Shown: positions 17,878 to 37,427 of the stretch, piece after piece
How the letters are laid out: every line of letters begins with the position of its first letter
Numbering within the stretch: position 1 is the first letter of the stretch
Assembly: GCA_015490455.1 (NCBI GenBank)
Contig: WFXU01000024.1
Location: forward strand, 13,663-77,662
Direction of reading: 5' to 3'
DNA: 64,000 nt
DNA from: Hyphomicrobiales bacterium
Lineage (GTDB): Bacteria > Pseudomonadota > Alphaproteobacteria > Rhizobiales > Devosiaceae
Program-made: the position numbers and the translations under genes
The notes under the pieces: model-generated
The model's database searches: none
Told to the model about the DNA's origin: nothing
What the model saw: only the letters and a program-made list of their open reading frames with translations

Positions 17878-18936
17878 CTATTTTGCCTTATATACACCAT
17901 TGGCATAGCGATCTGCCATTGCGCTTAATGAGACGGGCTTAATCTTGTCAGCCATTCCAGCGCAGCCAAATCTCTCAAAACGTTCAACACATAATTCGCT
18001 TGCCCGCTCACGCGCAGAAGATAAAATTGCTCTTACGTCAAAGGAAGATTTATTTTCCTCTAAAAATTTTCTTATAGAACCGGTCATAGCCATACGAATA
18101 TCGGTATCAATATTTACTTTTCTTACGCCAGATTTTATACCGCGTTCAACCTCCTCTAATGGCACTCCAAATGTTTTTGGAATAAGACCACCATATTCAT
18201 TTATGAGCTGCTGTAATTCCTCCGGAACACTGGAAGCTCCGTGCATAACTAAATGAGTATTAGGTAATTTTTCGTGGATTTTTTCAATAACATCCATTGC
18301 TAAAATATCGCCACTAGGACGACGACTAAATTTATAGGCCCCATGCGAGGTTCCAACTGCAACGGCTAAAGCGTCAATATTTGTATCTTTAACAAAACGG
18401 GCGGCTTCATCAGGATCTGTAAGTAACATATTTTTTTCTAATTTTCCTTCAAAACCGTGCCCATCTTCCTTTTCGCCCTCTCCGGTTTCTAACGAACCCA
18501 AAACACCAATTTCACCCTCAACAGAAACACCGCGCGCATGGGCAAGTTCAACCACATTTGCTGTAACTTCAACATTATAATCATAGTCTGATGGAGTTTT
18601 ACAATCGGCTAATAATGATCCATCCATCATGACAGAAGAAAAGCCAATATCCATTGCCGAAACGCAACAATTTACGTCATTTCCATGATCTAAATGTAAA
18701 CATATTGGCAAATGGGGATAGCGCTCTATTGCCCCCAAAAATAAATTTTTTAACAAAATATCATCAATATATTTTCTTGCCGAACGCGACGCTTGTATTA
18801 ATACCGGAGAATTTGTTTTATCGGCTGCCTGTAATACTGCCTGTAAAGTTTCAAGATTAGTAATATTGAAGGCGGGCATTCCATAGGAATTTTCAGCGGC
18901 GTGATCTAATAATTGACGAAGTGTGATTAGGGACAT
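17878..18936 (-). CDS. fba: Fructose-bisphosphate aldolase class II
   Basis: SLITLRQLLDHA N-terminus, HLDHG and MHGASS motifs. I chose the ATG at 18936, which is preceded by GGAGAG; the track ORF starts at a TTG at 18948. Confidence 0.9.
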   Translation of the reverse strand: MSLITLRQLLDHAAENSYGMPAFNITNLETLQAVLQAADKTNSPVLIQASRSARKYIDDILLKNLFLGAIERYPHLPICLHLDHGNDVNCCVSAMDIGFSSVMMDGSLLADCKTPSDYDYNVEVTANVVELAHARGVSVEGEIGVLGSLETGEGEKEDGHGFEGKLEKNMLLTDPDEAARFVKDTNIDALAVAVGTSHGAYKFSRRPSGDILAMDVIEKIHEKLPNTHLVMHGASSVPEELQQLINEYGGLIPKTFGVPLEEVERGIKSGVRKVNIDTDIRMAMTGSIRKFLEENKSSFDVRAILSSARERASELCVERFERFGCAGMADKIKPVSLSAMADRYANGVYKAK

Positions 18937-22022: not shown

Positions 22023-22856
22023 ATGATAGATGAGGAAAAGGTGCAAATAAGTGAATTTTCAACATCCCTGTTGGAGTGGCTAAGCGCCAACTCTTGGGGA
22101 ATAATAACCGCCCTTATAGTTCTTATTATTGGTTGGATATCTTCGCGCTATTTTGCTTCAATGGTTAGGAGATTAATTGAACGAACACCAAAAATTGATA
22201 AGACAATAGCCCCCTTGCTCAGTCAGCTTGTTCGCTACGCCATTTTAATCGTTACTATCATTATTGTATTAAACCAGTTTGGCGTTGCAACTAATTCCAT
22301 GCTGGCAGTATTGGGCGCTGCTGGCCTTGCTATCGCTTTAGCCTTACAGGGCACTCTTTCTAATGTCGCAGCGGGTGTAATGCTAATCTGGCTACGTCCA
22401 TTTTCTATAGGAGATTATATAAAGGTTGATTCTATTGAGGGAACGGTAAAGGAAATAGGGCTTTTTTCTACCAAATTTGAAACCGCCAATGGGGTTTATA
22501 TATTTGTTCCTAACTCGCAAATTTGGAGCTCTGCAATAGTTAATTTTGATAAGGAGGAAAGACGACGGGTTAATATAAAGGTGGGCATTTCATATGAAGC
22601 AAATATTGAAGAGGCGCGTAAAATTTTACTAAAAATAGCAAAAAATGATGATCGTGTGCTGGATAGGCCAGAGCCGGCTGTTTATGTTGATAGTTTAGGC
22701 GATAGTGCGGTTATTTTAACATTTCGTGCTTGGGTAAAATCCAGTGACTATTATAAAGTGCAATTCTTTTTCAATGAGCAAATTAAGCTGGAATTTGATA
22801 AGGGCAATATTGAAATTCCTTATAATAAGCTTGATGTTAACCTCATCAAGAATTGA
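22023..22856 (+). CDS. mscS: Small-conductance mechanosensitive channel (MscS family)
   Basis: 277 aa with three N-terminal TM helices, a pore-helix-like LQGTLSNVAAGVMLI segment and a beta-domain. Confidence 0.85.
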   Translation: MIDEEKVQISEFSTSLLEWLSANSWGIITALIVLIIGWISSRYFASMVRRLIERTPKIDKTIAPLLSQLVRYAILIVTIIIVLNQFGVATNSMLAVLGAAGLAIALALQGTLSNVAAGVMLIWLRPFSIGDYIKVDSIEGTVKEIGLFSTKFETANGVYIFVPNSQIWSSAIVNFDKEERRRVNIKVGISYEANIEEARKILLKIAKNDDRVLDRPEPAVYVDSLGDSAVILTFRAWVKSSDYYKVQFFFNEQIKLEFDKGNIEIPYNKLDVNLIKN

Positions 22857-22907
22857 GTATGAGAATTAACTAATTTGATTAAGGGGCTGACAAAATATAT
22901 TTATATA

Positions 22908-22958
22908 TAGTCGGCCGTGAAAATTTTATCGCTCGGAAGTCAGAAGTTAGAAGTCGGA
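22908..22958. repeat. Dispersed intergenic repeat, copy A (contains a GAAGTYR heptad x3)
   Basis: AGTCGGCCGTGAAAATTTTATCGCTCGGAAGTCAGAAGTTAGAAGTCGGA aligns to 51774-51816 at 36/43 positions, plus one 7-nt indel. Confidence 0.75.
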
Positions 22959-23081
22959 GATATATTAGTTTCAATTTGTAGGAGTGGGTGAAAAGGGTAG
23001 AGGCAATTCTTTCAATGCCTTTGCGTTATACTCGCATTGGTGCTGTTTCTTTGGCATCTTTGCCAATTGGCAATCCCTCTT

Positions 23082-23105
23082 AATATGTTATGAAATATGT
23101 TATGA
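23082..23105. repeat. Perfect tandem duplication of the 12-mer ATATGTTATGAA
   Basis: Read directly from the sequence. It lies about 25-50 nt outside the left edge of the GC-rich segment. Confidence 0.9.
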
Positions 23106-23129
23106 ACAAAAAGACTATCTCCAAATATA

Positions 23130-26100
23130 ATCGCAGCCACCCTCTAAAAGCAGGGCAGAGGAAAGCCGGGACCTAGTAGCTGTCATCCTCTGGCAGTCGT
23201 GGGACTCTCTAAGCGTTAAGAGGGTTAGGTATGAGGGCGATTATAGGTTGAGGGTCTTAGTAGCGTGCCTTTACAGTGCCGGTATCATTCCACCTCCGCC
23301 ACAATATGCGCTATTGCCAATTCCTGAGCCGGGCTGATTGGGAAGCCGCTCCCGCCCACTGGCGCATTTCCCGTTGCGGAGATGTTGCTACTGGCAAAGC
23401 CTTCATTTTGGAAGCTACGCACCGCGTCCCACAGCGCACCCCCCGTCTCCCAAAGAGACCAGCCGGTTGAAATCGGGTCGCCTATAGCCTCCTTAGTCTT
23501 ATTGATGCCGTAGTTTCGCGCCCATTCCTTTACCGCTTTGCGGGCGCCATCGCGCAGCAGATCACCATTTTCGGCACCACCAGCCCCGCCCTCAATTTTA
23601 CACAGACGCGCCGCCTTTTCGCGAGCCGCATTGACATTGCGATTGAGTAGCGCTTCTTCGCTTTCAATTGTCTCGCCAACTTGTGCCAGCATCAGGGTTG
23701 AGTAACACCACAGCTTATTTTCGCTCTGTTTGAAGGCAACAATGGCTCCTAGTTCGGCGCTAGCAAATGGGGTGAGACCCGCAAAATTGCCATAGGCCGT
23801 CCCATAGAGCGCTAGTAATTTATCAATTTTGTTGAACTGTTGCGCGATCTGCTCTAGCGAAGCACCTTTGGCAAAATTGTCACGGTCTAGATAGAAGGTG
23901 CGAAAGCGATTGCGCAATAATAGATCATAGCTAGTGTCAATCTGCCATAGCCATTGCCGAACTCCGGGTATGCGAACCAATGTTGACCCCTCCCAGCCCG
24001 GAGTGATTGCGGAAAGAAAGCCGGGCGGATAATCCTCGCCTGATATAGCTTCAGAAAGCGGGATAAATTGCAAGGTAGAGCCGGCATCCAGCAGCGCCGA
24101 GATTGCATCTGTTCCACCCAGCAAGCGACCTTCGGCGATGCTGGCGGCTATTTCGCCAGCCATAGTGTCACGGTTCCATTCGCCGCTATTTAGCGGGCGA
24201 GCCGGGCGCAAAAGCACGTCAAAAGCCTCGCGGCGCATCATCTGTTGCCTAGCGCCTAAATCTTGCGTAAGTTCAGCGCGGTGTAAATATAGGATCGGAC
24301 CGGGAGCAGGGCTCACCAAACCGCGTTCGGTGTCAATGGTAGCAAATGCGCGATAGCTATTAACCAGTCGCATCCGCGCTAATGAAGGCCAGCGGCGCGC
24401 CTCATCGTTCAGCCATTGATCCATCGGCTGGGGCGGTGGCGCTTCAGGCGCGGTCTTAATCTCGGTCGGTGTGCGCACCCCCAAAAGGCGCAAAGCATCA
24501 ATCCAACGGCTGAAATAGCGAATTAGATAAGCACGTTCGGGATAGGCACCCAAATCCCCGATTAGCGACCATGTGCCAGTCAAGCGTAGCGCCGTATCTG
24601 CTTGGTCAAGCCGCAACAAAACCCGACGCGCCCGATTATGAACGGCATCATAACCACTAGCCTGTGTAATAACCTCAAGATAGAGATGTGGCACCGCCGG
24701 CGAGCGTGTTCGGGTCGGGGGAATATAGCTACCTTCCGCCGCAAGTGTAGTATCGCGTAAGACTACCGTAATTTGCCGCTCGCCCGAACGTAAGGTGGAA
24801 CTCTCAGAATTGCCTGTCTCTGCCGCTATGGGCGTTTCCATCGCGCCAGATATATTCCCATCGAGAGCGGGTTGTGCATCTGTGTCTACATTCTCATCTA
24901 TCCCAGATTGCACCCGATATTGTAGCTGAACCTGACTAGATATTTCGGCTCCTATCCGGCGGAACAGCGCCTCAAGCCCCTTCGCATCACCCTGATAGGC
25001 TACCTGTCCGCCAGTTTTTTCGGCTAGGCGGGTCAAAAGCGCCGCATCGGCTTCTTCGCCCAGCGGGATTGCATAGATCTTGATTCCAGCCTGTTTTAGC
25101 CGATCAATTATCGCGGCCTCATCTCCGCCCACATTGTCTTCGCCATCGGATAATAGCAGCACGACCCCGCTCGTCAGCGCCTCATTGCGGCTCGTTCTGT
25201 CCAGCGCCCGAAGGATTCCTGTATAGCTATCTAACACCATCGCTTCTACCCCAGCAACAAAATTATCGCGCTCACTCAGAGGCGCCAGCGGCACCAGTTC
25301 ACTCGGCTCAAGGGCAAAGCTAGTCAGACCCACCGGCTGCCCCTCAGAAATTAGGTCTAACAGCGATAGGATTGCGCGCTTGCTGGATTCAAAGGCATCG
25401 GTATCACCCATTGACCAACTGACATCGGTCAGAATCAATAGCGGTCGGGCGCTCTGCCCCACCGACAATAGCCGTAGCGGATAGGCGCGCCCCTGATCGC
25501 GCAATAGAAAATGATCGGGCAGCCATAATCCGCCACCGCTGGCCTTCACCGATAAGCCGACCCGCACCAACGGCCAGTCGGCGCTATCAATCTGGGTGAT
25601 GTCCAGTGCCGTTGCGCTCGTAGGATTGGCAGGGGTGAGTTCATCAGACGCAGTAATGGGCGGACGTAAACCTACTGTGCTGGTGGCTCCGCCAAAGGCC
25701 AGCGAGAACGGCTTGCCCGTTATCTGGCGCCCATTCACCCGCAAATAGGGTTGCCACTGATCCACCTGTTCGGGTTGCGTACCATCGCGCAATTTCCCCA
25801 GAGGATCAATTGCCGGAAGAAAGCGCAGTTCTAATTCTTCTACGGCGGGGTTACCGCTCCATTCAATCAGCGTCTGCTCAAGCCCGCTACTATCTACCAC
25901 GCCCAGTCGTAAGGTGATCGGCACGATTTTAGGCATGTCAAACGAATAAGAATAAAAATCCCACCGGATCTGATCCATCGCCGTGTCCTTTAGCCCGGCA
26001 AGACCTTCTTCTAGCGTTGGATCGTTTCCATCATGCAGCAGGTCAAACACCCGCCGCCTGCCGTCCCGTTCGGCCACGACGACATAGCGTTTCAGCAGTC

Positions 26101-26830
26101 CGTATCCCTCAATGGTGTTGTAGTCATTATAATTGGGATAGTTCAGGCCGGGGCTGTTTTCGTCGGTTTCAAGAAGCTCCAGCGTCTGCTCAACAGTTGC
26201 CGCAATCTCGGCTCTGAGCTCGTCGCCGGCGCTACTTCGGGCGGCGGCTTCTGCTTGCGCCTGCATGTCGGGCGGCAAGGTGACCTCTTTATCCAGAAAC
26301 CGGCGCAGGGCGGTCAGCGCGGGGCTATTCTCGTTTGGGGAACGACCGACCGCCAATGAAGCGTCAGGGAGCGGGGTGAGCTGCAAATAACGGATTTCCC
26401 AACCCATTTCCTCCAAGAGCGTTCCAAATAGCACCGCCCTATCTAGCGGGTTGGCCATACGGGTTGTTAGCACCTGTTCGGGGGTCTGGCGGCGATCCAG
26501 ATAGGGAACCAACGCTATATCTTGCATTATAAAGGAATAGGTAGCATCAGCATCGCCAAGTGTTTTGGCGGCTTTTGTAATGGTGCGACCGGGTGCTTCC
26601 AGTTCGGCGCGGGCATCTTCTAAAAGTTGCAACAATCGCCCGGCAGGATCCTCTTCGCGCCCCAGCAATGACCATAGTAAAAACAATATGAGCGCCAAGA
26701 GTAGCGCTAAAATTGCGCCGATTATCCGCTTGCGGCGAGAATTTTGCGAACGATCTCGGCTCAATAGGCTAACCATCTATCCCCCCTACCTTCACCCCCG
26801 CTATTTTGGGCATATGGGTTATGGTTTAAT
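23130..26830. other. Compositionally foreign GC-rich segment carrying one gene
   Basis: Hand counts on 60-nt lines give 43/60 G+C at 25441-25500 and 35/60 at 24361-24420. The flanks give 16/60 at 26821-26880 and 21/60 at 23041-23100. G/C-ending codons and many spurious antisense ORFs occur only here. Confidence 0.85.
23285..26776 (-). CDS. Large membrane-anchored vWA-domain protein of unknown function (degenerate transglutaminase-like core + vWA + unassigned C-terminal half)
   Basis: An uninterrupted 1163-codon ORF with G-rich SD-like AGGGGGG just upstream of the ATG. Basic N-terminus plus TM helix IIGAILALLLALILFLLWSLL. MIDAS residues DVSWS...SYTG...SDGED. Confidence 0.8.
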   Translation of the reverse strand: MVSLLSRDRSQNSRRKRIIGAILALLLALILFLLWSLLGREEDPAGRLLQLLEDARAELEAPGRTITKAAKTLGDADATYSFIMQDIALVPYLDRRQTPEQVLTTRMANPLDRAVLFGTLLEEMGWEIRYLQLTPLPDASLAVGRSPNENSPALTALRRFLDKEVTLPPDMQAQAEAAARSSAGDELRAEIAATVEQTLELLETDENSPGLNYPNYNDYNTIEGYGLLKRYVVVAERDGRRRVFDLLHDGNDPTLEEGLAGLKDTAMDQIRWDFYSYSFDMPKIVPITLRLGVVDSSGLEQTLIEWSGNPAVEELELRFLPAIDPLGKLRDGTQPEQVDQWQPYLRVNGRQITGKPFSLAFGGATSTVGLRPPITASDELTPANPTSATALDITQIDSADWPLVRVGLSVKASGGGLWLPDHFLLRDQGRAYPLRLLSVGQSARPLLILTDVSWSMGDTDAFESSKRAILSLLDLISEGQPVGLTSFALEPSELVPLAPLSERDNFVAGVEAMVLDSYTGILRALDRTSRNEALTSGVVLLLSDGEDNVGGDEAAIIDRLKQAGIKIYAIPLGEEADAALLTRLAEKTGGQVAYQGDAKGLEALFRRIGAEISSQVQLQYRVQSGIDENVDTDAQPALDGNISGAMETPIAAETGNSESSTLRSGERQITVVLRDTTLAAEGSYIPPTRTRSPAVPHLYLEVITQASGYDAVHNRARRVLLRLDQADTALRLTGTWSLIGDLGAYPERAYLIRYFSRWIDALRLLGVRTPTEIKTAPEAPPPQPMDQWLNDEARRWPSLARMRLVNSYRAFATIDTERGLVSPAPGPILYLHRAELTQDLGARQQMMRREAFDVLLRPARPLNSGEWNRDTMAGEIAASIAEGRLLGGTDAISALLDAGSTLQFIPLSEAISGEDYPPGFLSAITPGWEGSTLVRIPGVRQWLWQIDTSYDLLLRNRFRTFYLDRDNFAKGASLEQIAQQFNKIDKLLALYGTAYGNFAGLTPFASAELGAIVAFKQSENKLWCYSTLMLAQVGETIESEEALLNRNVNAAREKAARLCKIEGGAGGAENGDLLRDGARKAVKEWARNYGINKTKEAIGDPISTGWSLWETGGALWDAVRSFQNEGFASSNISATGNAPVGGSGFPISPAQELAIAHIVAEVE

Positions 26831-27208
26831 TTGAGGCATATAAATTTAAGCCAGATATATTTTAATCGGCTCTATTTTGATACCTAATTATAGGACTATT
26901 CTAGGTCATAATACATAAAATTACCAGCCATATTATTATCAATTCGCGTGATGCTGATTGTTTGACCGGCAAAGACTTGGCTATGGGCAGAATAATTGCG
27001 GTTCATCCAGCGGCCAGATTCAAGATGACCAATTACCATTTAATAGCTGAACTTTGTCTCATATAGCCACTATAATTGCGAATAGTCTTTCTAGATTGCG
27101 GGTTAAAGTTACCGATTTACGGTTTCCGCAAATATCAATATGTTAAAAATTCTTCCCGAACGAACATTTAACAATCTTCCTTAGTTGCTCTGTCCCAATG
27201 CACAACGC

Positions 27209-27241
27209 AACTTAGAATCTAACTTATAATCTAACTTAGAT
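27209..27241. repeat. 12-nt tandem repeat AACTTAGAATCT / AACTTATAATCT / AACTTAGAT
   Basis: Read directly from the sequence: 2.75 units, one mismatch, about 45 nt beyond the erpA stop. Confidence 0.85.
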
Positions 27242-27286
27242 GTTCAATTTTAGTCATTAGAATGCGCTGACCAAAGCATCCCTATA

Positions 27287-27631
27287 TTAGAGGGAAAAAC
27301 TAGATCCACAGCCACAGGAAGCAACTGCATTTGGGTTGTCAATCTGGAAAGATTGTCCTGCTAATTCGTCAATAAAATCTATTTTGCTGCCTTGCATAAA
27401 TTGTAATGAAAGCGAATCGATTAAAATTCTTGCTTTTTCATTACCTAAAATAAGGTCATCTTCATTTGGCTTTTCTTGCACTAAATTATATTCATAAGAA
27501 AATCCTGAACACCCTCCTCCAGTAACAGAAATACGTAAAACAGTTCCCTTTGGCTCTTTAGCAATAATTTTGGCTATTTGTTTAAGGGCGCTATCAGTTA
27601 CCGTAATTTTTGCCATATTTTGTTCGTTCAT
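27287..27631 (-). CDS. erpA: Iron-sulfur cluster insertion protein (IscA/HesB/ErpA family)
   Basis: About 114 aa with GGGCSGF and C-terminal CGCGSSF cluster ligands. I chose the ATG at 27631; the track ORF begins at a TTG at 27646. Confidence 0.85.
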   Translation of the reverse strand: MNEQNMAKITVTDSALKQIAKIIAKEPKGTVLRISVTGGGCSGFSYEYNLVQEKPNEDDLILGNEKARILIDSLSLQFMQGSKIDFIDELAGQSFQIDNPNAVASCGCGSSFSL

Positions 27632-27712
27632 TTTCTTACTTTCCAAATTAATATCTCTAAGATAGGTTGATAAAATAAAATTGCAAAGGGAATATAAAGG
27701 GGAATATATTTA

Positions 27713-28864
27713 ATGAGCATGTTAGCAAAATATGCAACCCTTGCTCAATATTCACAAGGGAGAAAATTTACAACCGAAAACAGCCCTACAAGAACCCAAT
27801 TTCAGCGTGATCGCGATAGAATCATCCATTCAACTGCCTTTCGCCGTCTCCAATATAAAACACAAGTATTTGTGCGCCATGAAGGAAAGCACTTTAGAAC
27901 CCGATTAACCCATACATTGGAAGTTAGCCAAATTGCTCGCTCAATTTCGCGTGCTTTGAAGGTTGATGAAGATTTAGCCGAAGCAATAGCTTTAGCTCAT
28001 GATTTAGGTCATCCGCCATTTGGTCATGCGGGTGAGAGGGTGTTGGATAAAAAAATGCAAATTTGGGGAGGATTTGAGCATAATTTACAGTCTTTACGCA
28101 CAGTTACAAAATTAGAAAAACGTTATGCCGAACATGATGGATTAAATCTTACTTGGGAATGTCTTGAGGGGATATTAAAACATAATGGACCGATAATAAA
28201 TGAAAAAAACAAGGAGAAACTAAGTTTTATCAATTATTTAGAGCCAGAAACTTATGCAGGTTTAGAGGCGCAAATTGCTGCTATTGCCGATGATATAGCC
28301 TATAATGCTCACGATATTGATGATGGTTTAAGGGCGGGTTTGATTAAATTAGGAGATTTAATGGAAGTAGAAATATTAGCACCAATTGTCAAAACAATAT
28401 TGCATCAATGGCCGCATATTTCGGAGCAAAGACAGGCGCATGAGGTGCAGCGCCGCTTAATCACTGCTACAATTGAAGATGTTATTACTAGTTCAAGAGA
28501 AAATATTATTCGATTAAATCCGCAAAATGTTAATCAAGTGCGCAATGCAGGTAAGCAAATAATTATTTTTTCTGAGAAATTTACAAAATTAGAAAAAGAA
28601 TTAAAGCAATTTATGTATAAAAATATTTATAATTCCAGCGAAGTTAAAAAAGATGCCAGAAGGGGCGAAAAAATAATAGCGAAATTATTTGATTTTTTAA
28701 TCCAAACACCCATTTTGCCAAAAGATTGGCAGAATAAATTTGATTTGGCAAAGAATGAGAAAAAACGGGCAAGAATAATATGCGATTATATTGCCGGCAT
28801 GACAGATCAATATGCAATTGATTTATATGAGCAAATATTTGACGAGAAAGTAAAATTGAGCTAG
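27713..28864 (+). CDS. dgt: dGTP triphosphohydrolase-like HD-domain protein
   Basis: 383 aa with RTRLTHTLEV and HDLGHPPFGH motifs. Confidence 0.85.
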   Translation: MSMLAKYATLAQYSQGRKFTTENSPTRTQFQRDRDRIIHSTAFRRLQYKTQVFVRHEGKHFRTRLTHTLEVSQIARSISRALKVDEDLAEAIALAHDLGHPPFGHAGERVLDKKMQIWGGFEHNLQSLRTVTKLEKRYAEHDGLNLTWECLEGILKHNGPIINEKNKEKLSFINYLEPETYAGLEAQIAAIADDIAYNAHDIDDGLRAGLIKLGDLMEVEILAPIVKTILHQWPHISEQRQAHEVQRRLITATIEDVITSSRENIIRLNPQNVNQVRNAGKQIIIFSEKFTKLEKELKQFMYKNIYNSSEVKKDARRGEKIIAKLFDFLIQTPILPKDWQNKFDLAKNEKKRARIICDYIAGMTDQYAIDLYEQIFDEKVKLS

Positions 28865-28917
28865 TGCGCTTGGCAAATTATTGCGCCTGGCGCATCAGCT
28901 CTGAAGGTTTGGGACAT

Positions 28918-30672
28918 ATGGATATTTTTGCAATTTTTTCTGATAAGATAAAAAATACGCTAAAAGAAATATATGGCGAAGAAATATTGGACAATGAATT
29001 GCTTGCAAAAATAGCGGTTGAACCTCCACGCTCTCTCGCTCATGGCGATATTTCCACCAACGCTGCAATGGTCCTAAGTAAGAATTTAAGGCAAAATCCA
29101 CGCGAAATTGCTACAAAAATTACCGATTATTTCAAAAATGACAAAAATATTTCTTCTATAGAAATAGTTGGACCTGGCTTTATTAATTTTCGCCTCAAAA
29201 ATAAAATATATCACTCTCTTTTATCATCCATATTGAGCCTGGGTGAAAATTACGGCAAAGTAGATATGGGGCAGGGGGAGAGGGTTAATATTGAATATGT
29301 TTCCACTAATCCAACAGGGCCTATTCATGTTGGGCATATAAGGGGGGCTGTATTTGGCGATGCGCTGGCAAGTTTAATGGAATTTGTTGGCTATGATGTG
29401 GTGAGAGAATATTATGTTAATGATGCTGGCGGGCAGATCGATATTTTGGCAAAGTCTGCATTTTTACGTTATCGCCAGGCTTTGGGTGAGAAAATTGGGG
29501 AAATAGAAAAAGGCCTTTATCCGGGCAAATATCTTGTTCCTATAGGGCAGGATTTAGCAGTCAAATTTGGCGATAAATTATTAACAAAACCAGAAAAAGA
29601 AAGTTTAGAAATTATAAAGCCAATTGTTCTTAAAGCTATGTTGGTTCTGATAAAGCAAGATCTGGCCAAACTTAACATTAGACATGACATATTTTTTTCT
29701 GAACAGAGTTTACATGGTAAGGATGGGGAAATAGAAAAAACACTTAGCTGGCTTAGAGAAAAGGGGCTTGTTTATCAGGGTAAATTAGAGCCGCCAAAGG
29801 GTAAGTTAAGCGATGATTGGGAGGATAGGGAGCAAACCCTATTTAGGGCAACAAAATTTGGCGATGACAGCGATAGGGCTCTGGTCAAGTCAGATGGTTC
29901 TTACACTTATTTTGCTTCAGATATTGCCTATCATAGAGAAAAATATTTGCGCGGATTTAATAAGCAAATTGTAGTGCTTGGGGCGGATCATTCCGGCTAT
30001 GTAAAGCGCTTAAAGGCTGCGGTTAAGGCTATTTCTGATGGCAAGGCCGAGCTGGATGTAAAAATCTGCCAATTAGTGCGGCTTTTACGCGATGGCAAGC
30101 AGGTAAAAATGTCAAAGCGCTCAGGAGAATTAGTAAGTTTGGCTGAAATTGTTGACGAGGTAGGTCCGGACGCTGTGCGCTTTATTATGTTATTTAGGCG
30201 TAATGATGCTCCGCTTGATTTTGATTTTAATTTGGTAAAAGAAATGAGCCGCGAAAATCCGGTTTTTTACGTGCAATATGCATATGCGCGCAGCTGTTCA
30301 ATATTTCGCACCGCGAATCGTGAACTGCCAGATTTGGATCTTTCTATAGACGCACTAAGAAGGGCTGATATTTCTTTATTGACAATAGAGGAGGAAATTG
30401 CCCTAATAAAATTACTTTCAACCTGGCCGCGTGTCCTGAAAGCAGCCGCCAAAACACATGAACCACATAGAATAGCCTTCTATCTTCATGAGCTTGCGGC
30501 GGGGTTTCATGGTTTTTGGACAAGGGGTAAAGAAAATCCAGATTTACGGTTTGTTAACCATAATAGTTTGAGTGTAACATTAGCCAGAATGGTTTTGGTA
30601 AGATCAGTTCAACAGATTTTAGGAACTGGTTTGAGAATTTTGGGGGTTAGCGCACCCAGTGAGCTTTCATAA
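28918..30672 (+). CDS. argS: Arginine--tRNA ligase
   Basis: HIGH-type motif PTGPIHVGHIRG and KMSKS-type KMSKRSG. I preferred the ATG at 28918 over the GTG at 28864, which abuts the dgt stop. Confidence 0.95.
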   Translation: MDIFAIFSDKIKNTLKEIYGEEILDNELLAKIAVEPPRSLAHGDISTNAAMVLSKNLRQNPREIATKITDYFKNDKNISSIEIVGPGFINFRLKNKIYHSLLSSILSLGENYGKVDMGQGERVNIEYVSTNPTGPIHVGHIRGAVFGDALASLMEFVGYDVVREYYVNDAGGQIDILAKSAFLRYRQALGEKIGEIEKGLYPGKYLVPIGQDLAVKFGDKLLTKPEKESLEIIKPIVLKAMLVLIKQDLAKLNIRHDIFFSEQSLHGKDGEIEKTLSWLREKGLVYQGKLEPPKGKLSDDWEDREQTLFRATKFGDDSDRALVKSDGSYTYFASDIAYHREKYLRGFNKQIVVLGADHSGYVKRLKAAVKAISDGKAELDVKICQLVRLLRDGKQVKMSKRSGELVSLAEIVDEVGPDAVRFIMLFRRNDAPLDFDFNLVKEMSRENPVFYVQYAYARSCSIFRTANRELPDLDLSIDALRRADISLLTIEEEIALIKLLSTWPRVLKAAAKTHEPHRIAFYLHELAAGFHGFWTRGKENPDLRFVNHNSLSVTLARMVLVRSVQQILGTGLRILGVSAPSELS

Positions 30673-30740
30673 TTGTGGCACATTGCTGTGCCAAGAACAA
30701 AATTAGTATGATTTAATTATGAAAGCCAGGGTGGTTTCAA

Positions 30741-32792
30741 ATGGGTAAAGCACATATGTCAAAAGATTTTGAGCAAAATAGTGAGACAGATGATCTAATT
30801 GCAGAATTGGCGCGCATGATGGCGCAGGACGCTAAAAAAGGTAGTGAGGTGAATATATCATCACCTCAATCTGCGGCAAATGATGGATCTGCTAATATAG
30901 AGCAAAATCCTTCAAAAGATAAAGATGAAGGACAACAAGGAATTACAAATTTTCAGCTGCCGGAAGAATTAAAAGACCCAGCGCAAATGCGGGAAAATCT
31001 TGACAAAGTGCTAAGCGCCAGCGAGAGGCTAAGCGCAACCCGTTCGGCAAAAAAATTTTCTCAAGAGCAAGGGGGGGAGCATAGCCAAATTGAAGAAAAT
31101 TTGCCAAATATGGAATATGGTGAATTAAGCACCAATGTTTCTTCTGAAATAAGAGAGGAGGTTCCTCTTGCTGAGGAGGGGCAGAATAATTTAGAAAATT
31201 CTCAACTGGCTGATGATCCAATTGCAAGATTAATTGCTCAACAATTAGAAGAAGAAGAGCTTAGTGAAAATGAAAATAGGCGAGTAGGTGAAAGCGGAGA
31301 TGTTTCTGTTTCCGAAAATTCGCAGTTTGCGCAAATACAAAATAATAATGCGCAGCCGGATAGCAATTTACAAAACGATAATGTTCAGCCACAAAATGAA
31401 AATAGTGGAGATAGGTTTGAGAGCGCGCCAATTTTCGGGTTGGGGGGAAATGGAAATGTTTCTCCTACTGCCCCACAGGCTAACTATGCCACAAAGGGTA
31501 ATGATTATCCAGAAGATATGGATCCGCTTGAGGAAATAGAAAGCCTTATTGGTGAGGCGGTGCGTGATAGCGCCAGAGCAAAGCAAGATAGATTATCCGA
31601 CATTGGGGAAAATATGTCGGAAGAAACTATTTCAGTTGATGAGGCGGCGAAAGCGGCTGAATCTAAAATTTTAGCAGCTGCTATTGATAGTCAAAATATT
31701 AAGCAAAATAATGATAGGGTAGCGGAAAATATAAATATTGTCCCAGAGCAGCAACCAGAGCTGCAAAATATGCAAAATGAACAAAAATCTTCATTTTTGC
31801 GTAAATTTCTAGGTCCTGTCGTTGCTGGCTTATTTTTCTGGATTGTTGGTTTTGCCCTTTATTATTATTTTGTTGTTGTGCCCAAAAATGATTCAACTAA
31901 TGTGGTGCCGGTGCTTAGCGCTGAAACAGAACCGGAAAAAATTATCCCCTCCACTCAGTCTGACGAAGAAGAGCAATCTGTAGTGATGAATGAACTTGGA
32001 GGAGAAAAAAATACCCCGCAAAATGAACAGCTAATTTCGCGTGATGAAAGCCAAAATAATGATCCGATTGCCAGAGTCATTGAAACTAGTGATAATGGAA
32101 ACACACAAACGACTCTTACTAATCGCAAAGTAAAAACTGTTACCGTTCGCCCGGACGGCACAATTATCAGTGGTGACACGGCAAGGGCTGGGAATGAGGC
32201 ATTGCCGATCGAGCGGCCAAATGTTCCGAATTTGCCCGCAAATTCAACTAATGAAGCGGCTCTACAGGCTAATCAACCCGTAATATCTAACCAAAACCAA
32301 CCTTCTCAAACACAGGTTCAAATTGCAACTGGTCCTGCGGGTGCATCCTCGTCAGACCCGCAAACTTCTTCATCTTCTGGGGCAAATATTCAGACCTCCA
32401 CAAGTCCTTCTGCTTCTAATTCGGGTGCAGTTGATTTATTAGCTAATTCGGCGAACGAGGCAGTTACACAAATCCAAACCGGCCCGGCTACAAATGATTC
32501 AGCCACGAGCGTGGCAAGCCAGAATGGAGCAAATAATCTAACAATAGCACCAGCCTATGTGCAGGTTGCATCGCGGCGTGAAGAACAGAATGCACAAAAA
32601 TCTCTTATTGAAATTAAAACAAGATTTGCTTCAATAATTGGAGATAGAATTATGGAAATTCAAAGAGCAGATCTTGGCGATAAGGGTATTTATTATCGTG
32701 TTAGAATTCCCGCAGATTCAATAGAAAATGCTAATCAAATATGCAATAGTCTAAAGTTAGCAGGTGGTGACTGTTTTGTGCGCACTGATTAA
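30741..32792 (+). CDS. SPOR-domain protein with a long low-complexity region and one TM helix
   Basis: 683 aa, rich in Q/N/S/E. TM helix VVAGLFFWIVGFALYYYFVVV. C-terminal SPOR-like YVQVASRREEQNAQ...YYRVRIP. Confidence 0.7.
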   Translation: MGKAHMSKDFEQNSETDDLIAELARMMAQDAKKGSEVNISSPQSAANDGSANIEQNPSKDKDEGQQGITNFQLPEELKDPAQMRENLDKVLSASERLSATRSAKKFSQEQGGEHSQIEENLPNMEYGELSTNVSSEIREEVPLAEEGQNNLENSQLADDPIARLIAQQLEEEELSENENRRVGESGDVSVSENSQFAQIQNNNAQPDSNLQNDNVQPQNENSGDRFESAPIFGLGGNGNVSPTAPQANYATKGNDYPEDMDPLEEIESLIGEAVRDSARAKQDRLSDIGENMSEETISVDEAAKAAESKILAAAIDSQNIKQNNDRVAENINIVPEQQPELQNMQNEQKSSFLRKFLGPVVAGLFFWIVGFALYYYFVVVPKNDSTNVVPVLSAETEPEKIIPSTQSDEEEQSVVMNELGGEKNTPQNEQLISRDESQNNDPIARVIETSDNGNTQTTLTNRKVKTVTVRPDGTIISGDTARAGNEALPIERPNVPNLPANSTNEAALQANQPVISNQNQPSQTQVQIATGPAGASSSDPQTSSSSGANIQTSTSPSASNSGAVDLLANSANEAVTQIQTGPATNDSATSVASQNGANNLTIAPAYVQVASRREEQNAQKSLIEIKTRFASIIGDRIMEIQRADLGDKGIYYRVRIPADSIENANQICNSLKLAGGDCFVRTD

Positions 32793-32946
32793 TTATCAGC
32801 TTATTGAGTAACAGGGCAGCCTTTTGGATAAAAAAGTTAGACGCTGCCATATTGCTGATGGTGAATATTTTATGGCGGGCTTGACCTTTTTTGCTCTTAA
32901 GGCAAATCTGTTTTGTAGGGCAAATATAATTTATTTGGCGGTAAAT

Positions 32947-33744
32947 ATGGATGAATTTGATGATGGCTTGCTAAATCTAAGAGAAAAAGATTCTGATAAT
33001 GCCAATAGAATGTATGTAGATATAAGGGGATATGAGGGGCCGCTTGATCTTTTACTGGATTTGGCGCGCAAACAAAAGGTTGATTTAGCCAATATTTCTG
33101 TTTTGGAATTGGCTGAGCAATATCTTGAATTTATTGAAAAAGTCAGAAAAAACCGCATTGACATTGCTGCTGATTATTTGGTTGTTGCCGCCTGGCTTGC
33201 CTATCTGAAAAGCCGCCTTTTAGTGCCACATAGAGATAGTGATGAAGAGCCCAGCGGTGAAATGATGGCGGCGATGTTGCAATTTCGCCTGAAAAAATTA
33301 GAAGCAATGCGTAAAGCTTCTGAACAATTAATTAATCGTCCAAGATTGGGCAGGCAAATTTTTGCTCGCGGTCAAATTGAACCGGTAAATATAAATATTT
33401 CAGTCAAATTTAAGGCAAGCCTTTATGATTTATTAAAAGCCTATGCCACACAGAGAGAAAGAACAATATCAGCGAATTATGTTCCTTCAAAACGCAATGT
33501 CTGGTCTTTACAAGAGGCTGTAAACATATTACAGCGCCTTATTGGTAATAGCGTAGATTGGGTGCCATTAGAAAAATATCTGCTGCAATATTTATCTGAA
33601 GATGAAGATAGAAGCTCGGTAATTGCCTCTAGTTTTAGCGCAAGCCTTGAACTGGCAAGACAGGGCCAGTTAGAGTTAAAGCAAATAGCTCCCTTTTCTT
33701 CTCTATTACTTAGAAGACGAAAAGCCAATAATCTTAAGCAATGA
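32947..33744 (+). CDS. scpA: Segregation and condensation protein A
   Basis: FEGPLDLLLDL-type motif (YEGPLDLLLDLARKQKVDL) and scpB immediately downstream. I chose the ATG at 32947; the track ORF starts at a TTG at 32824. Confidence 0.85.
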   Translation: MDEFDDGLLNLREKDSDNANRMYVDIRGYEGPLDLLLDLARKQKVDLANISVLELAEQYLEFIEKVRKNRIDIAADYLVVAAWLAYLKSRLLVPHRDSDEEPSGEMMAAMLQFRLKKLEAMRKASEQLINRPRLGRQIFARGQIEPVNINISVKFKASLYDLLKAYATQRERTISANYVPSKRNVWSLQEAVNILQRLIGNSVDWVPLEKYLLQYLSEDEDRSSVIASSFSASLELARQGQLELKQIAPFSSLLLRRRKANNLKQ

Positions 33745-33759
33745 TATTAACTGATTAAT

Positions 33760-34464
33760 ATGAGTGATGAACTGTTTGATAATGAAGAAAAATTAGAGCT
33801 TGAAGAGAGAAATTTGCGCATAATTGAAGCTCTGATTTTTGCTGCAGATAAGCCGGTTTCGGCAAAAGATTTGCAACCATATTTGAGTGATGGGGCGGAT
33901 ATTGAGCATTTATTAAAAAAATTGGCCGCCCTTTATGAAAATAGGGGAGTAAATTTAGTCAGACGTGAAGATGAGTGGGCTTTTCGTACTGCTGAAGATT
34001 TGGCATTTTTATTACGAAAAGAAGATGAACAAACCCGCCCCCTTTCGCGCGCTTCTTTAGAAACATTGGCGATTATTGCCTATCATCAGCCAACAACAAG
34101 GGCTGAAATTGAAGAAATAAGAGGGGTTTCAACCGGCAAGGGAACTTTGGATATTCTATTAGAAACAGGTTGGATAAAAATGCGCGGGCGCCGGCGCACA
34201 CCAGGTAGGCCTATTACCTATGGCACTACAAAGGAATTTTTAGATCATTTTTCCCTTAGCTCCATTAAAGATTTGCCCGGTCTTGAAGAATTAAAAGGAG
34301 CCGGACTACTTTCAAATAAATTGCCGCCAAATATACAAATTCCGGTGCCATTTGATGGGGCATTGCGTGATGATGAGGATCACTTAGAAGAGGAAGATTT
34401 ACAAGGGAAAATTGTAGAAGAAGAATTTCTATTACAAAACTCTGTTCCCAATGAAGAAAAATAA
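33760..34464 (+). CDS. scpB: Segregation and condensation protein B
   Basis: IIEALIFAADKPVS and LETLAIIAYHQPTTRAEIEEIRGV motifs, with an acidic tail. Confidence 0.85.
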   Translation: MSDELFDNEEKLELEERNLRIIEALIFAADKPVSAKDLQPYLSDGADIEHLLKKLAALYENRGVNLVRREDEWAFRTAEDLAFLLRKEDEQTRPLSRASLETLAIIAYHQPTTRAEIEEIRGVSTGKGTLDILLETGWIKMRGRRRTPGRPITYGTTKEFLDHFSLSSIKDLPGLEELKGAGLLSNKLPPNIQIPVPFDGALRDDEDHLEEEDLQGKIVEEEFLLQNSVPNEEK

Positions 34465-35588
34465 TGAAATTTCGTGCGAAGCAAGTTCAGGATAAAGAAA
34501 ATATCAGAACCAGTTGGGGTCGGCGCGGTACAGCAGGCGTTAGTTTTGCTTCTACCGTTGAATTTAATAAGGTTGATGTAAATTTTGCTGGAAAGAAAAT
34601 ATTACAACAGATTGATTTAACTCTATTTCCTGGCGAGATTGTTTGCTTATTGGGAGAATCTGGCTCAGGCAAATCAACTATTTTACGCCTTATTGCCGGC
34701 TTGCAGCAGGTTAGCGCCGGAACTATCTCAATTAATCATAAGATTGTTGCAAATAGTAATTTTAATTTGCCACCCGAAAAGCGGGCAACCGGTTTAATGT
34801 TTCAGGATTTTGCTCTTTTCCCGCATATGAGCTTAATAGAAAATGTTGAATTTGGGTTGATTAAGCTGCAAAAAAAAGAAAAAAACTATCAGGCAAAAGT
34901 TGCCTTAAAACGAGTTGGGCTTGAGGGAAGGGAACATGATTATCCGCATATGCTTTCTGGTGGTGAACAGCAAAGGTTGGCTTTGGCCAGAACAATAGCT
35001 CCCAGACCAGGCATTATTATGCTTGATGAACCTTTTTCTGGTCTTGATTCGCGAATGCGTGAAATTGTGCGCGCTGAAACAATGGCCGTGTTAAGAGAGA
35101 TAAATGCCACAACCATAATTGTAACTCATGATCCGGAAGAGGCAATGTTATTGGGTGATAAAATAATATTGCTGAGAAATGGGCAAATAGTGCAAAATGA
35201 TATTTCGGCAAATATTTTTCATAAACCAGCCGATATAGGGGTAGCCCGTTTTATGTCACCATTAACTGAAATTGGTGCTATGGTTAAGAATGGAATTATT
35301 GATACGCCCTTAGGCAGAATAAAGGCTGAAAATAAAAAAGATGGCCAAAGGGTAATTATTGCTATAAGACCGGTTGATGCTATTGAAATGTCTGAAAAAA
35401 AACCAGGAATTAGGGGCAGGCTGGTTTCAAAAAGAGAGGCTCTTGGAATTGATATTTATGAAGTTCAGGTTGAAAATATGGAAGGATTAATTAATGTCCG
35501 CCAAAGGTCAAATCCCAAATTTATTGTTGGTGCAGATGTTTTTTTACGCTTAAATATGCAGCATGTTCTTGTTTTTGACCAGAATTAG
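34464..35588 (+). CDS. ABC transporter ATP-binding protein (PotA/FbpC/CysA-like, with C-terminal regulatory domain)
   Basis: Walker A GESGSGKST, signature LSGGEQQR, Walker B IIMLDEP and H-loop THD. There is no permease or binding-protein gene nearby. Confidence 0.85.
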   Translation: MKFRAKQVQDKENIRTSWGRRGTAGVSFASTVEFNKVDVNFAGKKILQQIDLTLFPGEIVCLLGESGSGKSTILRLIAGLQQVSAGTISINHKIVANSNFNLPPEKRATGLMFQDFALFPHMSLIENVEFGLIKLQKKEKNYQAKVALKRVGLEGREHDYPHMLSGGEQQRLALARTIAPRPGIIMLDEPFSGLDSRMREIVRAETMAVLREINATTIIVTHDPEEAMLLGDKIILLRNGQIVQNDISANIFHKPADIGVARFMSPLTEIGAMVKNGIIDTPLGRIKAENKKDGQRVIIAIRPVDAIEMSEKKPGIRGRLVSKREALGIDIYEVQVENMEGLINVRQRSNPKFIVGADVFLRLNMQHVLVFDQN

Positions 35589-35639
35589 CAATATCTATAA
35601 AGAGTAATCATGTAAATTTATGTAAAGTGGAGAATTAAA

Positions 35640-35864
35640 ATGAATCCGGGACCATGGGGTATCTTAATAATTGTCATAGCTATTCTTTTATTATTTGGGC
35701 GAGGAAAAATTGCAGGAATGATGGGAGAAATAGCTAGCGGTATAAAAAGTTTCCAAAAAGGCCTTAGAGATGATGATGAAAAGCCAATCTCACAAATTGA
35801 CGCTAGTGCAAAATCTGAAGCCGAATCTGAAGCTGAAACTGTTAAGAGAAATAAAGATTCTTAA
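35640..35864 (+). CDS. tatA: Twin-arginine translocase subunit TatA
   Basis: 74 aa with an N-terminal TM helix then an amphipathic FG..KI....G..IKSFQKG segment. It precedes tatB and tatC. Confidence 0.85.
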   Translation: MNPGPWGILIIVIAILLLFGRGKIAGMMGEIASGIKSFQKGLRDDDEKPISQIDASAKSEAESEAETVKRNKDS

Positions 35865-35900
35865 TTTTACGGCTTATTGTAAAGCCATGAGGAATAGTTG

Positions 35901-36494
35901 ATGCTAAGTTTTGGTTGGCCTGAAATGCTTATTGTTGCAGCGGCGGCGCTTATTATTGTGGGGCCGCGCGATTTGCCAAAATTACTGCGTAATATTGGTC
36001 GCGTGCTGGGTAAGGTCAGGCGTATGGGAGATGAATTTAAGCGGGAGATAAATAAGGTTGCCGCAATTGATGATATTAAAGAAATTAAATCTTCCATAAC
36101 CAATCCCCTAGAGCAAACTCGCTCTGATATTGAAAGTGAGTTTAATAAAATAACAATTGACGGGGTTGAGCCAAGCGGAGCTATAAAACCGAAAGATCCC
36201 AATGCCAATAATGTCTATGCAGAGATAAAGGCAGCTAGTGCGAAGGTCGGTGAGACTAAAACTAAGGCAAATAGAGTAAATAAAGAAAAAAGCGCAAGGA
36301 GTTCTACTTCAACAACAAAAAAGAAAACAAATAGTGTAGCCTCAGCCAGTGCAGCACAAAAAAGTGCCAAAATAGCAAAAAATAAAACTTCTAAGGCCAA
36401 AGCGGCAAAATTGGCTAAAAATGAGCAGGCTAAAAATGCGCAGACTAAAACGACTAATAATAGCAATAATAGTAAGACAGTAAGGCAAAAGTAA
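35901..36494 (+). CDS. tatB: Twin-arginine translocase subunit TatB with a Lys/Ala-rich tail
   Basis: MLSFGWPEMLIVAAAALIIVGPRDLP N-terminus, lying between tatA and tatC. Confidence 0.8.
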   Translation: MLSFGWPEMLIVAAAALIIVGPRDLPKLLRNIGRVLGKVRRMGDEFKREINKVAAIDDIKEIKSSITNPLEQTRSDIESEFNKITIDGVEPSGAIKPKDPNANNVYAEIKAASAKVGETKTKANRVNKEKSARSSTSTTKKKTNSVASASAAQKSAKIAKNKTSKAKAAKLAKNEQAKNAQTKTTNNSNNSKTVRQK

Positions 36495-36513
36495 AAAATT
36501 AGATAGCAATCAA

Positions 36514-37413
36514 ATGAGTGCAAAGAAGAAGAATAAGCCAGATATTGCAAAAAAATATGATGTGCCAGATAAATCTGTTGCCAAAAAAAGCGCTATGGAT
36601 GAAAAACAGGAAGAGAAAGAAAAAAAAGAAGATGAATTAGCCGCTTCAGAAGCCCCGCTGATAGAACATCTTATTGAATTACGCCAGAGGCTGATTTTTT
36701 CCGTTGTAGCGATTGCTGTTTTATTTGTTATTTTCTTTTTTCTTGCCGATAAGATTTATTTATTTTTGCTTGGGCCATTTGAAAGAGCTGCCGGCTCAAA
36801 CGAAGCTGTTAGGCTTATTTATACTGCGCCGCAGGAATTTTTCTTTACCAAACTTTCGGTTGCTCTTTTTTCGGCTATTTTTGCCGCCTTTCCAATCGTT
36901 GCCGGTCAGCTTTATGCATTTATTGCGCCCGGACTATATAAGAATGAAAGGGGGGCGTTCTTACCCTATTTAATAGCAACCCCAATATTATTTGTTATTG
37001 GCGCTGCGGTTATGTTTTATGGCGTTTTACCTTTGGCGCTAAGTTTTTTTCTGTCGCAAGAAGTTAACTCCGCTGGCGGTGTAACTATTGAAATGCTACC
37101 GCGAGTTTCTGAATATCTTAGCCTTATCATGACTTTACTATTCGCATTTGGAATATGTTTTCAATTGCCAATCATTCTTACTTTGCTTGCAACTATTGAA
37201 CTGGTTGATAGTAAAAAGCTAAAATCTTGGCGCAAATATGCGATTGTGGCAATATTATTTGTTGCGGCCTTCTTAACCCCACCCGATCCTATTTCTCAAC
37301 TTGGCCTTGCCTTACCCATGTTACTACTTTATGAAACTTCTATTATTTCGGTAAAAATAGTTGAACGCCGCCGCGCCAAAAAAGAAGCGGCTTATAAGGC
37401 AAGTTTGCAATAA
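36514..37413 (+). CDS. tatC: Twin-arginine translocase subunit TatC
   Basis: [13 protein letters not shown] motif and six TM helices. About 45 aa of Lys-rich N-terminal extension precede the motif, so Met28 is a possible start. Confidence 0.9.
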
Positions 37414-37427
37414 TATTTAAGGGTAAA

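Follow-up and report, generated by a model that had tools for sequence, protein, structure and literature searches.

We analysed a 64,000-nucleotide stretch of DNA from a Hyphomicrobiales bacterium (NCBI GenBank assembly GCA_015490455.1, contig WFXU01000024.1, positions 13,663 to 77,662 of the forward strand; hereafter the window) and focused on a GC-rich segment of about 3.7 kb that lies between mscS and erpA and holds a single gene encoding a 1163-amino-acid protein. We consider it likely that this is one horizontally acquired and partly ameliorated gene in an AT-rich alphaproteobacterium and that it sits at a junction specific to its lineage; its product may be a binding protein. The donor would have been a high-GC lineage, probably of Alphaproteobacteria, living in the same type of environment; purifying selection would have kept the gene, and roughly half of its excess third-position G+C would have been lost since. 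The features of the locus are as follows, in window coordinates:

22023-22856, plus strand: MscS gene, left flank
22857-23130, no strand assigned: left junction, an AT-rich host-type spacer from the mscS stop to the foreign segment
23131-26815, no strand assigned: compositionally foreign segment of about 3.7 kb (G+C 0.55-0.57 against a background of 0.386)
23131-23284, minus strand: GC-rich 3' untranslated tail of 154 bp (G+C in 30-bp windows 0.47-0.57 against 0.23-0.30 just outside)
23285-26776, minus strand: putatively acquired gene, the sole open reading frame (ORF), 1163 amino acids (ORF list; Pfam VWA PF00092; intact and under purifying selection)
26777-26815, minus strand: GC-rich 5' leader, read from the sequence, in which a purine- and G-rich stretch resembles a Shine-Dalgarno site (…GAAGGTAGGGGGGATAG-ATG)
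26816-27286, no strand assigned: right junction, an AT-rich host-type spacer from the foreign segment to the erpA stop
27287-27646, minus strand: ErpA gene, right flank, upstream of the acquired gene and on the same strand

A preliminary description, made from the letters of the DNA, had reported a jump in G+C at this place, a switch to codons ending in G or C, and exactly one ORF between mscS and erpA, and we recovered all three. In 300-bp windows, G+C rises from 0.35 at 22800-23099 to 0.52-0.59 over 23100-26700 and is back at 0.36 by 26850; windows of 30 bp place the edges at about 23130 and about 26800-26830, with G+C on the leader side falling from 0.57 at 26770-26799 to 0.27 past 26830. 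At 1-kb resolution, the segment (0.546-0.571) is the sole outlier in the 64 kb, more than 6 standard deviations from the remaining window (0.386 +/- 0.026, maximum 0.442), and its contrast with the host amounts to 17 G+C points. G+C by codon position in the ORF is 0.63/0.47/0.56, and its third-position value (GC3) of 0.56 compares with 0.24-0.35 across ten neighbouring genes. GC-rich DNA is limited to the ORF, the 154-bp 3' tail and the leader of about 40 bp. The tail arrived together with the gene, and it showed no similarity to the flanks of homologues. Scans for promoters and terminators returned hits at chance level only, and no promoter-like site on the minus strand of the 26816-27286 spacer scored at least 9/12. 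A codon-position regression of the Muto-Osawa type was not discriminating, with homologues having similar gaps between GC1 and GC3, and was not used as evidence.

The homologues place the origin of the gene in high-GC genomes. Among 5.8 billion protein clusters, only five other clusters at 90% identity were found with 58-69% identity over the full length, all on contigs of 58-66% G+C, with a gene G+C of 0.63-0.71 and GC3 of 0.72-0.88. About 38 clusters, mostly of 1000-1100 amino acids and with the same layout, matched at E < 1e-30 among 1.84 billion cluster representatives; a word-indexed profile search for a wider family returned only the six known members and unrelated VWA proteins. In a neighbour-joining tree, the window protein is sister to P0002 and P0003 together (bootstrap 1.0) inside a clade of six members (bootstrap 1.0), with P0004-6 placed around the window branch and the next outgroup, P0127, residing in a genome of 62% G+C. 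In most other genomes the gene has a G+C near that of its surroundings (locus L001 departs mildly, with about 0.69 in surroundings of 0.58-0.66), and none of the homologue loci examined departs from its surroundings as the window gene does. Because the gene matches local G+C in most homologue genomes, its high G+C reflects history and not a requirement, which argues for transfer into an AT-rich host. These comparisons support a genuine horizontal transfer from a high-GC lineage, and the source lineage was probably alphaproteobacterial. A search for the donor by protein similarity, as proposed in the preliminary description, thus found a high-GC clade and no named donor, the nearest sequences being only 68-69% identical. 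A high-GC homologue (L006) and an AT-rich relative of the host (L097) both come from a single sequencing run, SRR33939663, so that donor-like and recipient-like lineages share a habitat. The gene family seems to be concentrated in one habitat type; from assembly names and two “hydrothermal vent metagenome” labels we read the samples, as our own interpretation, as hydrothermal deposits. High-GC carriers of the family and AT-rich host relatives also come from the same project of metagenome-assembled genomes (MAGs; GCA_0540xxxxx series).

We next consider how long the gene has been in its present surroundings. Substitutions were counted by parsimony, restricted to sites at which the two sister sequences have the same base as at least two of the three outgroups. 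On the window branch there were 258 GC-to-AT changes against 17 AT-to-GC changes (167 against 4 at third positions), and on the two control branches the corresponding counts were 41/24 (P0002) and 21/35 (P0003). The AT-ward shift reaches first and second codon positions and amino-acid content: 30 Gly, Ala, Arg or Pro residues were lost on the window branch and none gained. Where the amino acid is invariant (412 columns), the window copy has a GC3 of 0.58 and the others have 0.74-0.91. The window gene has a synonymous divergence (dS) of 1.2-1.4 from its nearest homologues, which are separated from each other by 0.31, and its ratio of nonsynonymous to synonymous divergence (dN/dS) is 0.15-0.16. 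Overall, the sequence comparisons indicate a gene long under AT-biased mutation and purifying selection, neither recent nor unameliorated, with a GC3 roughly halfway between that of its relatives and that of the host.

These results bear on the proposal that the segment was acquired very recently from a high-GC donor, in which the high-GC origin stands and the very recent, unameliorated arrival does not. A very recent transfer without amelioration could nonetheless be imagined from an unsampled donor of about 55% G+C, given that distant family members (L182 and L183) occupy genomes of 50-57% G+C with a gene G+C of 0.50-0.53, that the best match is only 68-69% identical, and that the edges of the island are still sharp. 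We regard this as unlikely: the window gene is nested among sequences that all have a GC3 of 0.72-0.88 (the five other members and the next outgroup), the AT-ward shift is confined to the window branch, including codon positions 1 and 2 and amino acids, and that branch is long. A stopover in an unsampled host of intermediate G+C before the present host is possible.

The gene would have been acquired by an AT-rich host, three relatives of which lack it beside mscS. Core proteins in the window are closest to those of Devosia or Devosiaceae and other Hyphomicrobiales, at identities of 53-59% for dGTPase, up to 68% for ErpA and up to 64% for ArgS, which makes the host an AT-rich alphaproteobacterium that has no close sequenced relative in the set of GTDB species representatives; by sequence, then, the host is an alphaproteobacterium of about 39% G+C nearest to Devosiaceae. 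Nearer relatives were found in metagenomes (L096, L098 and L099), with MscS proteins 73-81% identical and a contig G+C of 0.40-0.42. Beyond the flanking genes, the window carries LacI and PEPCK on the mscS side and dGTPase and ArgS on the erpA side. LacI stands beside mscS in 3/3 of the relatives, PEPCK and TRAP genes are present in L098 and L099, and FBA-FBPase is present in L098 only. Downstream of mscS, all three carry an AMP-dependent ligase or an M1 peptidase, and the VWA gene and erpA are absent. A comparison of the locus in related strains had been suggested, and these three AT-rich, admittedly distant, relatives lack the gene at this site. On the other side, erpA-dgt-argS is kept in 74/80 alphaproteobacterial loci and the SPOR protein in 34; none of the 80 had mscS or a homologue of the acquired gene within 10 kb of erpA-dgt. 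Scans with dGTPase across genome and metagenome contigs for an empty site on the erpA side gave relatives of at most 59% identity among the matches listed. The order erpA-dgt-argS-SPOR protein-...-scpA-...-tatA/B/C at 27287-36500 is partly common to other Alphaproteobacteria. As the left block and the erpA block are not joined in any of these relatives or of the 80 loci, the gene lies at a junction unique to this lineage: the core blocks TRAP-FBPase-FBA-PEPCK-LacI-MscS and ErpA-dGTPase-ArgS-SPOR...TatABC would have been joined in this lineage only, with the gene at their junction.

The absence of mobility genes and tRNAs had been noted before and was confirmed here. Neither ARAGORN (tRNA and tmRNA genes) nor a search for Rfam families returned a hit in the 64 kb, and when about 40 ORFs spread over the window were scanned with Pfam, none had a domain of an integrase, a transposase or a phage protein. 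Repeats at the junctions, whether direct, inverted or tandem, did not rise above noise; the sole inverted pair flanking the segment (23110-23134 and 27066-27090; 25 nt, 76%) is one of 55 comparable pairs in the same 4.5 kb. Thus the ORFs scanned include no mobility gene of the kind found in canonical islands, and the segment has no site adjacent to a tRNA or tmRNA gene and no flanking direct or terminal inverted repeats above noise. The genes that follow mscS in the relatives (AMP-ligase and M1 peptidase) left no remnants in the window by tblastn, and neither AT-rich spacer showed homology to relatives or to homologue flanks by blastn. A larger mobile or recombining fragment may have brought the gene in, at a junction prone to rearrangement, and a later deletion or rearrangement would have erased the vehicle and any target-site signature, all unselected DNA having gone over a long residence. 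The insertion vehicle has probably been lost, as the breakpoint in synteny and the presence of homologues beside transposase, IS21 and phage-portal genes suggest. The segment had been called an orphan gene with an unexplained insertion mechanism; it is indeed a lone gene without a mobility gene, and the same breakpoint and mobile neighbours go part of the way to explaining how it came to be there. Both AT-rich spacers contain short tandem repeats, GAAGTCA x2.9 (22936-22955) and AACTTAGAATCT x2.7 (27209-27240), which share the 8-mer AAGTTAGA in inverted orientation. This 8-mer occurs four times in the whole window, three times within the two spacers, and its total equals chance expectation; the sharing is probably a coincidence, and a decayed terminal repeat is the less likely reading.

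To describe the product, we combined Pfam and PDB profiles, Foldseek and an AlphaFold2 (AF2) model with an alignment of 37 family members. With all 37 sequences the model reached a pLDDT of 78.1 and a pTM of 0.77, against a pLDDT of 46 with six sequences. The predicted domains, all on the minus strand, are:

26663-26725: N-terminal transmembrane anchor, about residues 18-38, after a basic RRKR stretch (Kyte-Doolittle, AF2)
26030-26650: transglutaminase-like domain of the papain fold, about residues 43-249, its triad disrupted (family Pfam matches)
24941-25441: VWA domain, residues 446-612, with a complete metal ion-dependent adhesion site (MIDAS) (Pfam, PDB profiles, Foldseek)
23288-24776: C-terminal region, residues 667-1163, with a beta-sandwich, an alpha/beta domain and a helical bundle (AF2)

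Kyte-Doolittle windows of 19 residues exceed 1.6 at residues 14-42 only, the sole membrane segment, where AF2 places a helix at 12-38; by the positive-inside rule, we infer an N-in/C-out topology. The transglutaminase-like domain was assigned, as a putative one, through the family alignment: Pfam Transglut_core (PF01841) matches 12/37 members (best E 4.7e-7; P0135 at 26.1 bits against a cut-off of 23), and the window protein itself has no match at E <= 0.01. With triad columns assigned by motif alignment, the window protein has P110 in the column of the catalytic Cys (Cys in 2/37) and Arg230 in that of the His (His in 4/37), and Asp245 is kept in 26/37; a family motif, R106-x-[AG]-N109-x-x-D112, is invariant or nearly so. 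Judging from these residues, the domain is most likely a non-catalytic binding module. The VWA domain matches PF00092 at 45.2 bits (cut-off 23.8) over residues 447-605, and its MIDAS motif, DxSxS...T...D, is complete (D451, S453, S455, T519 and D544). D451, S455 and D544 are conserved in 37/37 members, S453 in 35/37 and T519 in 22/37. Profile matches in the PDB include CLCA1, collagen VI, BatB and integrin I domains, and for the predicted model, which has a pLDDT of 85-95 in this region, Foldseek gave target-normalised TM scores of 0.70-0.76 and root-mean-square deviations of 2.6-3.6 A to vWF A3 and integrin I domains, as expected of a Rossmann-like alpha/beta fold. A variable linker at residues 626-663 is disordered in the model. 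Searching the whole chain against PDB and BFVD with Foldseek returned the VWA domain only, and the C-terminal region was also without a match to Pfam or PDB profiles; about three quarters of the protein length have no domain model. The only cysteines of the window protein, C1024 and C1059, are invariant in 37/37 members and probably form a disulfide in the helical C-terminal domain. A sole, invariant pair of cysteines agrees with a disulfide formed under oxidising conditions and so with a protein located in the periplasm.

In our proposal, one N-terminal helix would lie in the inner membrane with the remainder probably periplasmic, and beta-sandwich spacers would join the pseudo-transglutaminase, MIDAS VWA and helical C-terminal domains. 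The activity may be metal-dependent binding of an envelope or external ligand, with no dedicated partner gene required. We tentatively propose, at somewhat less than even odds, a stand-alone binding or scaffold protein that depends on metal, is anchored in the inner membrane and lies in the periplasm. A literature search on proteins combining transglutaminase-like and vWA domains returned no description of this architecture.

Three groups of proteins resemble parts of it. BatA and BatB, of Bacteroides and Leptospira aerotolerance, likewise have an N-terminal anchor followed by an extracytoplasmic MIDAS VWA domain, and BatB structures (3ibs and 4jdu) are among the profile matches. Unlike the Bat proteins, which are of about 320-340 amino acids and encoded in bat operons, the window protein has 1163 residues, is encoded by a solitary gene, and carries extra N- and C-terminal domains; it scored 15.6 and 15.4 bits with the NCBIfam BatA and BatB models (NF047508 and NF047506), against cut-offs of 380 and 350. 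Operons of the bat type include a MoxR-type ATPase, and neither bat genes nor a MoxR ATPase neighbour the gene in the window or in eight homologue contexts. TgpA of Pseudomonas is a membrane protein with a transglutaminase-like domain. The family shares with TgpA and other PF01841 proteins a membrane anchor and, as predicted through the family alignment, an extracytoplasmic transglutaminase/papain fold, and its distant members reach the Pfam threshold; unlike the TgpA type, it has no catalytic Cys, has mostly lost the His, is fused to a VWA domain, and has no adjoining DUF58 or MoxR gene. Finally, CLCA1, collagen VI, ITIH and integrin I domains are the best matches for residues 446-612, with a complete MIDAS, but the likeness to these eukaryotic proteins is limited to the VWA fold (11-21% identity) and the remaining architecture is unrelated.

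To characterise the surroundings of the family, we examined eight different genomic contexts and found the gene to be solitary in all eight. Neighbours include a DDE_3 transposase (L001), IS21 fragments (L013) and, in L015, the gene for a phage portal protein. P0004 is found in two high-GC MAGs (GCA_054046105.1 and GCA_054012615.1; L004 and L005, 1255-8817), about 1.2 kb away from a type I-C CRISPR-Cas operon that is complete, in the order cas3-cas5d-csd1-cas7-cas4-cas1-cas2; an uncharacterised ORF of 162 amino acids separates the two. P0006 stands directly downstream of three giant ORFs on the same strand (L008, 1-9739), encoding an RHS/YD-repeat protein of more than 2054 amino acids, one with a PEGA domain (1318 amino acids) and one that is unannotated (1599 amino acids), a set that may be a surface or toxin gene cluster. 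More distant members have ribosomal, cell-envelope or sugar-catabolism genes as neighbours. Searches of IMG/VR viral contigs, PLSDB plasmids and INPHARED phages returned no homologue.

Such neighbours raise the possibility that the gene is cargo of defence or conflict islands, a stand-alone anti-phage or inter-bacterial factor that spreads through that role. The CRISPR-Cas operon, the RHS/PEGA cluster, the transposases and the phage portal gene would all suit such a history, as would a patchy distribution in which the gene is always single. We think it improbable, since four members matched no family of the PADLOC-DB 2.0 defence models at E <= 1, viral contigs, phage records and plasmids hold no homologue, other members sit in the ribosomal, envelope or sugar-catabolism settings listed above, and the domains (anchor, extracytoplasmic VWA, Cys pair) include no nuclease, NTPase or other effector. 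A related idea is that the pseudo-transglutaminase/VWA/two-Cys proteins of about 1,100 amino acids form an undescribed family of stand-alone mobile envelope factors, moving as naked single genes without a dedicated vehicle, apparently mainly among alphaproteobacteria of environmental metagenomes, with a possible role in conflict between cells or with phages, or in attachment to surfaces. We hold this to be doubtful; if it were true, the window would contain a gene of this kind that became fixed in a host differing from its source by 17 G+C points.

That the segment is part of the genome at all, and not a high-GC fragment falsely joined into an AT-rich contig during assembly or binning, is indicated by four further assemblies: ERZ23495399 and ERZ23495177 (ENA), GCA_015491475.1 (NCBI) and a Logan assembly of SRR10312490 (L009-L012). 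Their contigs encode the identical protein or one with a single residue changed, and they are collinear with the window through both junctions over 6-23 kb at 99.93-99.95% identity. The comparison was made on assembled contigs, which with the window represent different pipelines and at least three read sets; two identical false joins are not expected under these conditions, and we reject a chimera on the evidence of these contigs. A chimera would find some footing in the fact that all data are metagenomic, that high-GC carriers of homologues and relatives of the host co-occur in the same runs, and that the compositional step is sharp at both edges. Besides the repeated junctions and flanks, however, the exact gene is on no high-GC contig in the 5.8-billion-protein collection, and a GC3 of 0.56 with AT-biased changes misfits a fresh fragment of any sampled high-GC relative, leaving the chimera or contamination raised in the preliminary description with only a very slight probability. 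The differences among the assemblies are themselves clustered: all five base differences between the window and L010, L011 and L012 fall in 9 bp at 24134-24142 (positions 2635-2643 of the coding sequence), reading AGC..C..C in the window and GCT..T..T in the three others, with Ser879 replaced by Ala. These contigs (6-15 kb) are otherwise identical to the window save for two indels, and L009 has the same cluster together with two more synonymous differences, at positions 736 and 741 of the coding sequence. The cluster looks like a multi-nucleotide or micro-conversion event and not like independent single-nucleotide polymorphisms.

An ancient, vertically inherited gene whose high G+C is held by selection on the protein or mRNA is hardly credible either: a GC2 of 0.47, high in all members, means that part of the G+C is set by a protein rich in Ala, Gly, Arg and Pro, and purifying selection does act on the gene, but gene G+C follows its surroundings from 0.50 to 0.64 in most genomes (L001 excepted) and so points to no intrinsic requirement for high GC3, the three AT-rich relatives have no gene at the locus, and no AT-rich homologue was found in the databases searched.

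Several points weigh against our preferred reading of one acquired and partly ameliorated gene. The donor is unsampled, with nearest sequences at 68-69% identity, and some of the decrease in G+C could be due to a donor of intermediate G+C. With GC-rich ancestors, parsimony tends to overcount GC-to-AT changes, though the control branches are without such a skew. All assemblies come from one site and represent nearly one strain, and contigs are what support the junctions. The comparison covers only three relatives of the host; they are fairly distant (MscS 73-81%) and cover the mscS side only. The junctions lack direct repeats, inverted repeats above noise and element remnants, and a vehicle followed by its loss is what we infer from the setting. 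Lastly, neither the N-terminal nor the C-terminal domain has a match in the structure searches, and topology, disulfide and ligand binding are predictions from sequence and a predicted model.

We also compared the locus with known kinds of acquired DNA. The concept of amelioration of horizontally acquired genes has reportedly been treated by Lawrence and Ochman (J Mol Evol 1997). As in ameliorating acquired genes, the foreign composition is confined to the acquired DNA, third positions have drifted fastest towards the host, and relatives lack the gene. Unlike usual ameliorating transfers, this one is a lone gene without a tRNA target, integrase, repeats or insertion sequences, retains a contrast of 17 points despite a long branch, and has an unsampled donor. 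With canonical genomic islands it shares a deviant composition, a lineage-specific presence and a site between core genes; canonical islands are tRNA-adjacent and have an integrase and direct repeats, whereas the segment has none of these and, with one gene in 3.7 kb, is far smaller. With integrase, tRNA target and repeats all missing, the locus is not a canonical genomic island.

Two further observations concern the ORFs of the window. Long spurious antisense ORFs had been said to occur only within the segment, which proved incorrect. Two antisense ORFs (108 and 89 amino acids) lie within the acquired gene, and antisense or overlapping ORFs of 100-300 amino acids occur elsewhere too, for instance at 5958-6275, 17945-18256 and 37343-38251. 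The last of these (minus strand, 302 amino acids) has no Pfam match, is antisense to tatC and serS, and is a spurious ORF in AT-rich DNA. In addition, the gene for the TRAP transporter protein DctM is split into two adjacent ORFs at 52731-54330 on the minus strand, 53293-54330 matching positions 2-257 of Pfam DctM and 52731-53288 matching positions 259-413; the split may be genuine, or it may stem from an assembly error or from a frameshift or stop codon that made the gene a pseudogene.

Taken as a whole, the locus is an ordinary, if unusually tidy, transfer of a gene that belongs to a rare, uncharacterised family. With six clusters of 90% identity above 58% identity in 5.8 billion, the protein family overturns nothing and merits a description of its own. 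The missing integrase and tRNA need not make an island mysterious when its site is a synteny breakpoint. What the locus offers is a clean and internally controlled case of amelioration in progress, with sharp borders, sampled high-GC relatives and an AT bias at all codon positions, and it could be a calibration case for dating transfers in uncultured lineages.

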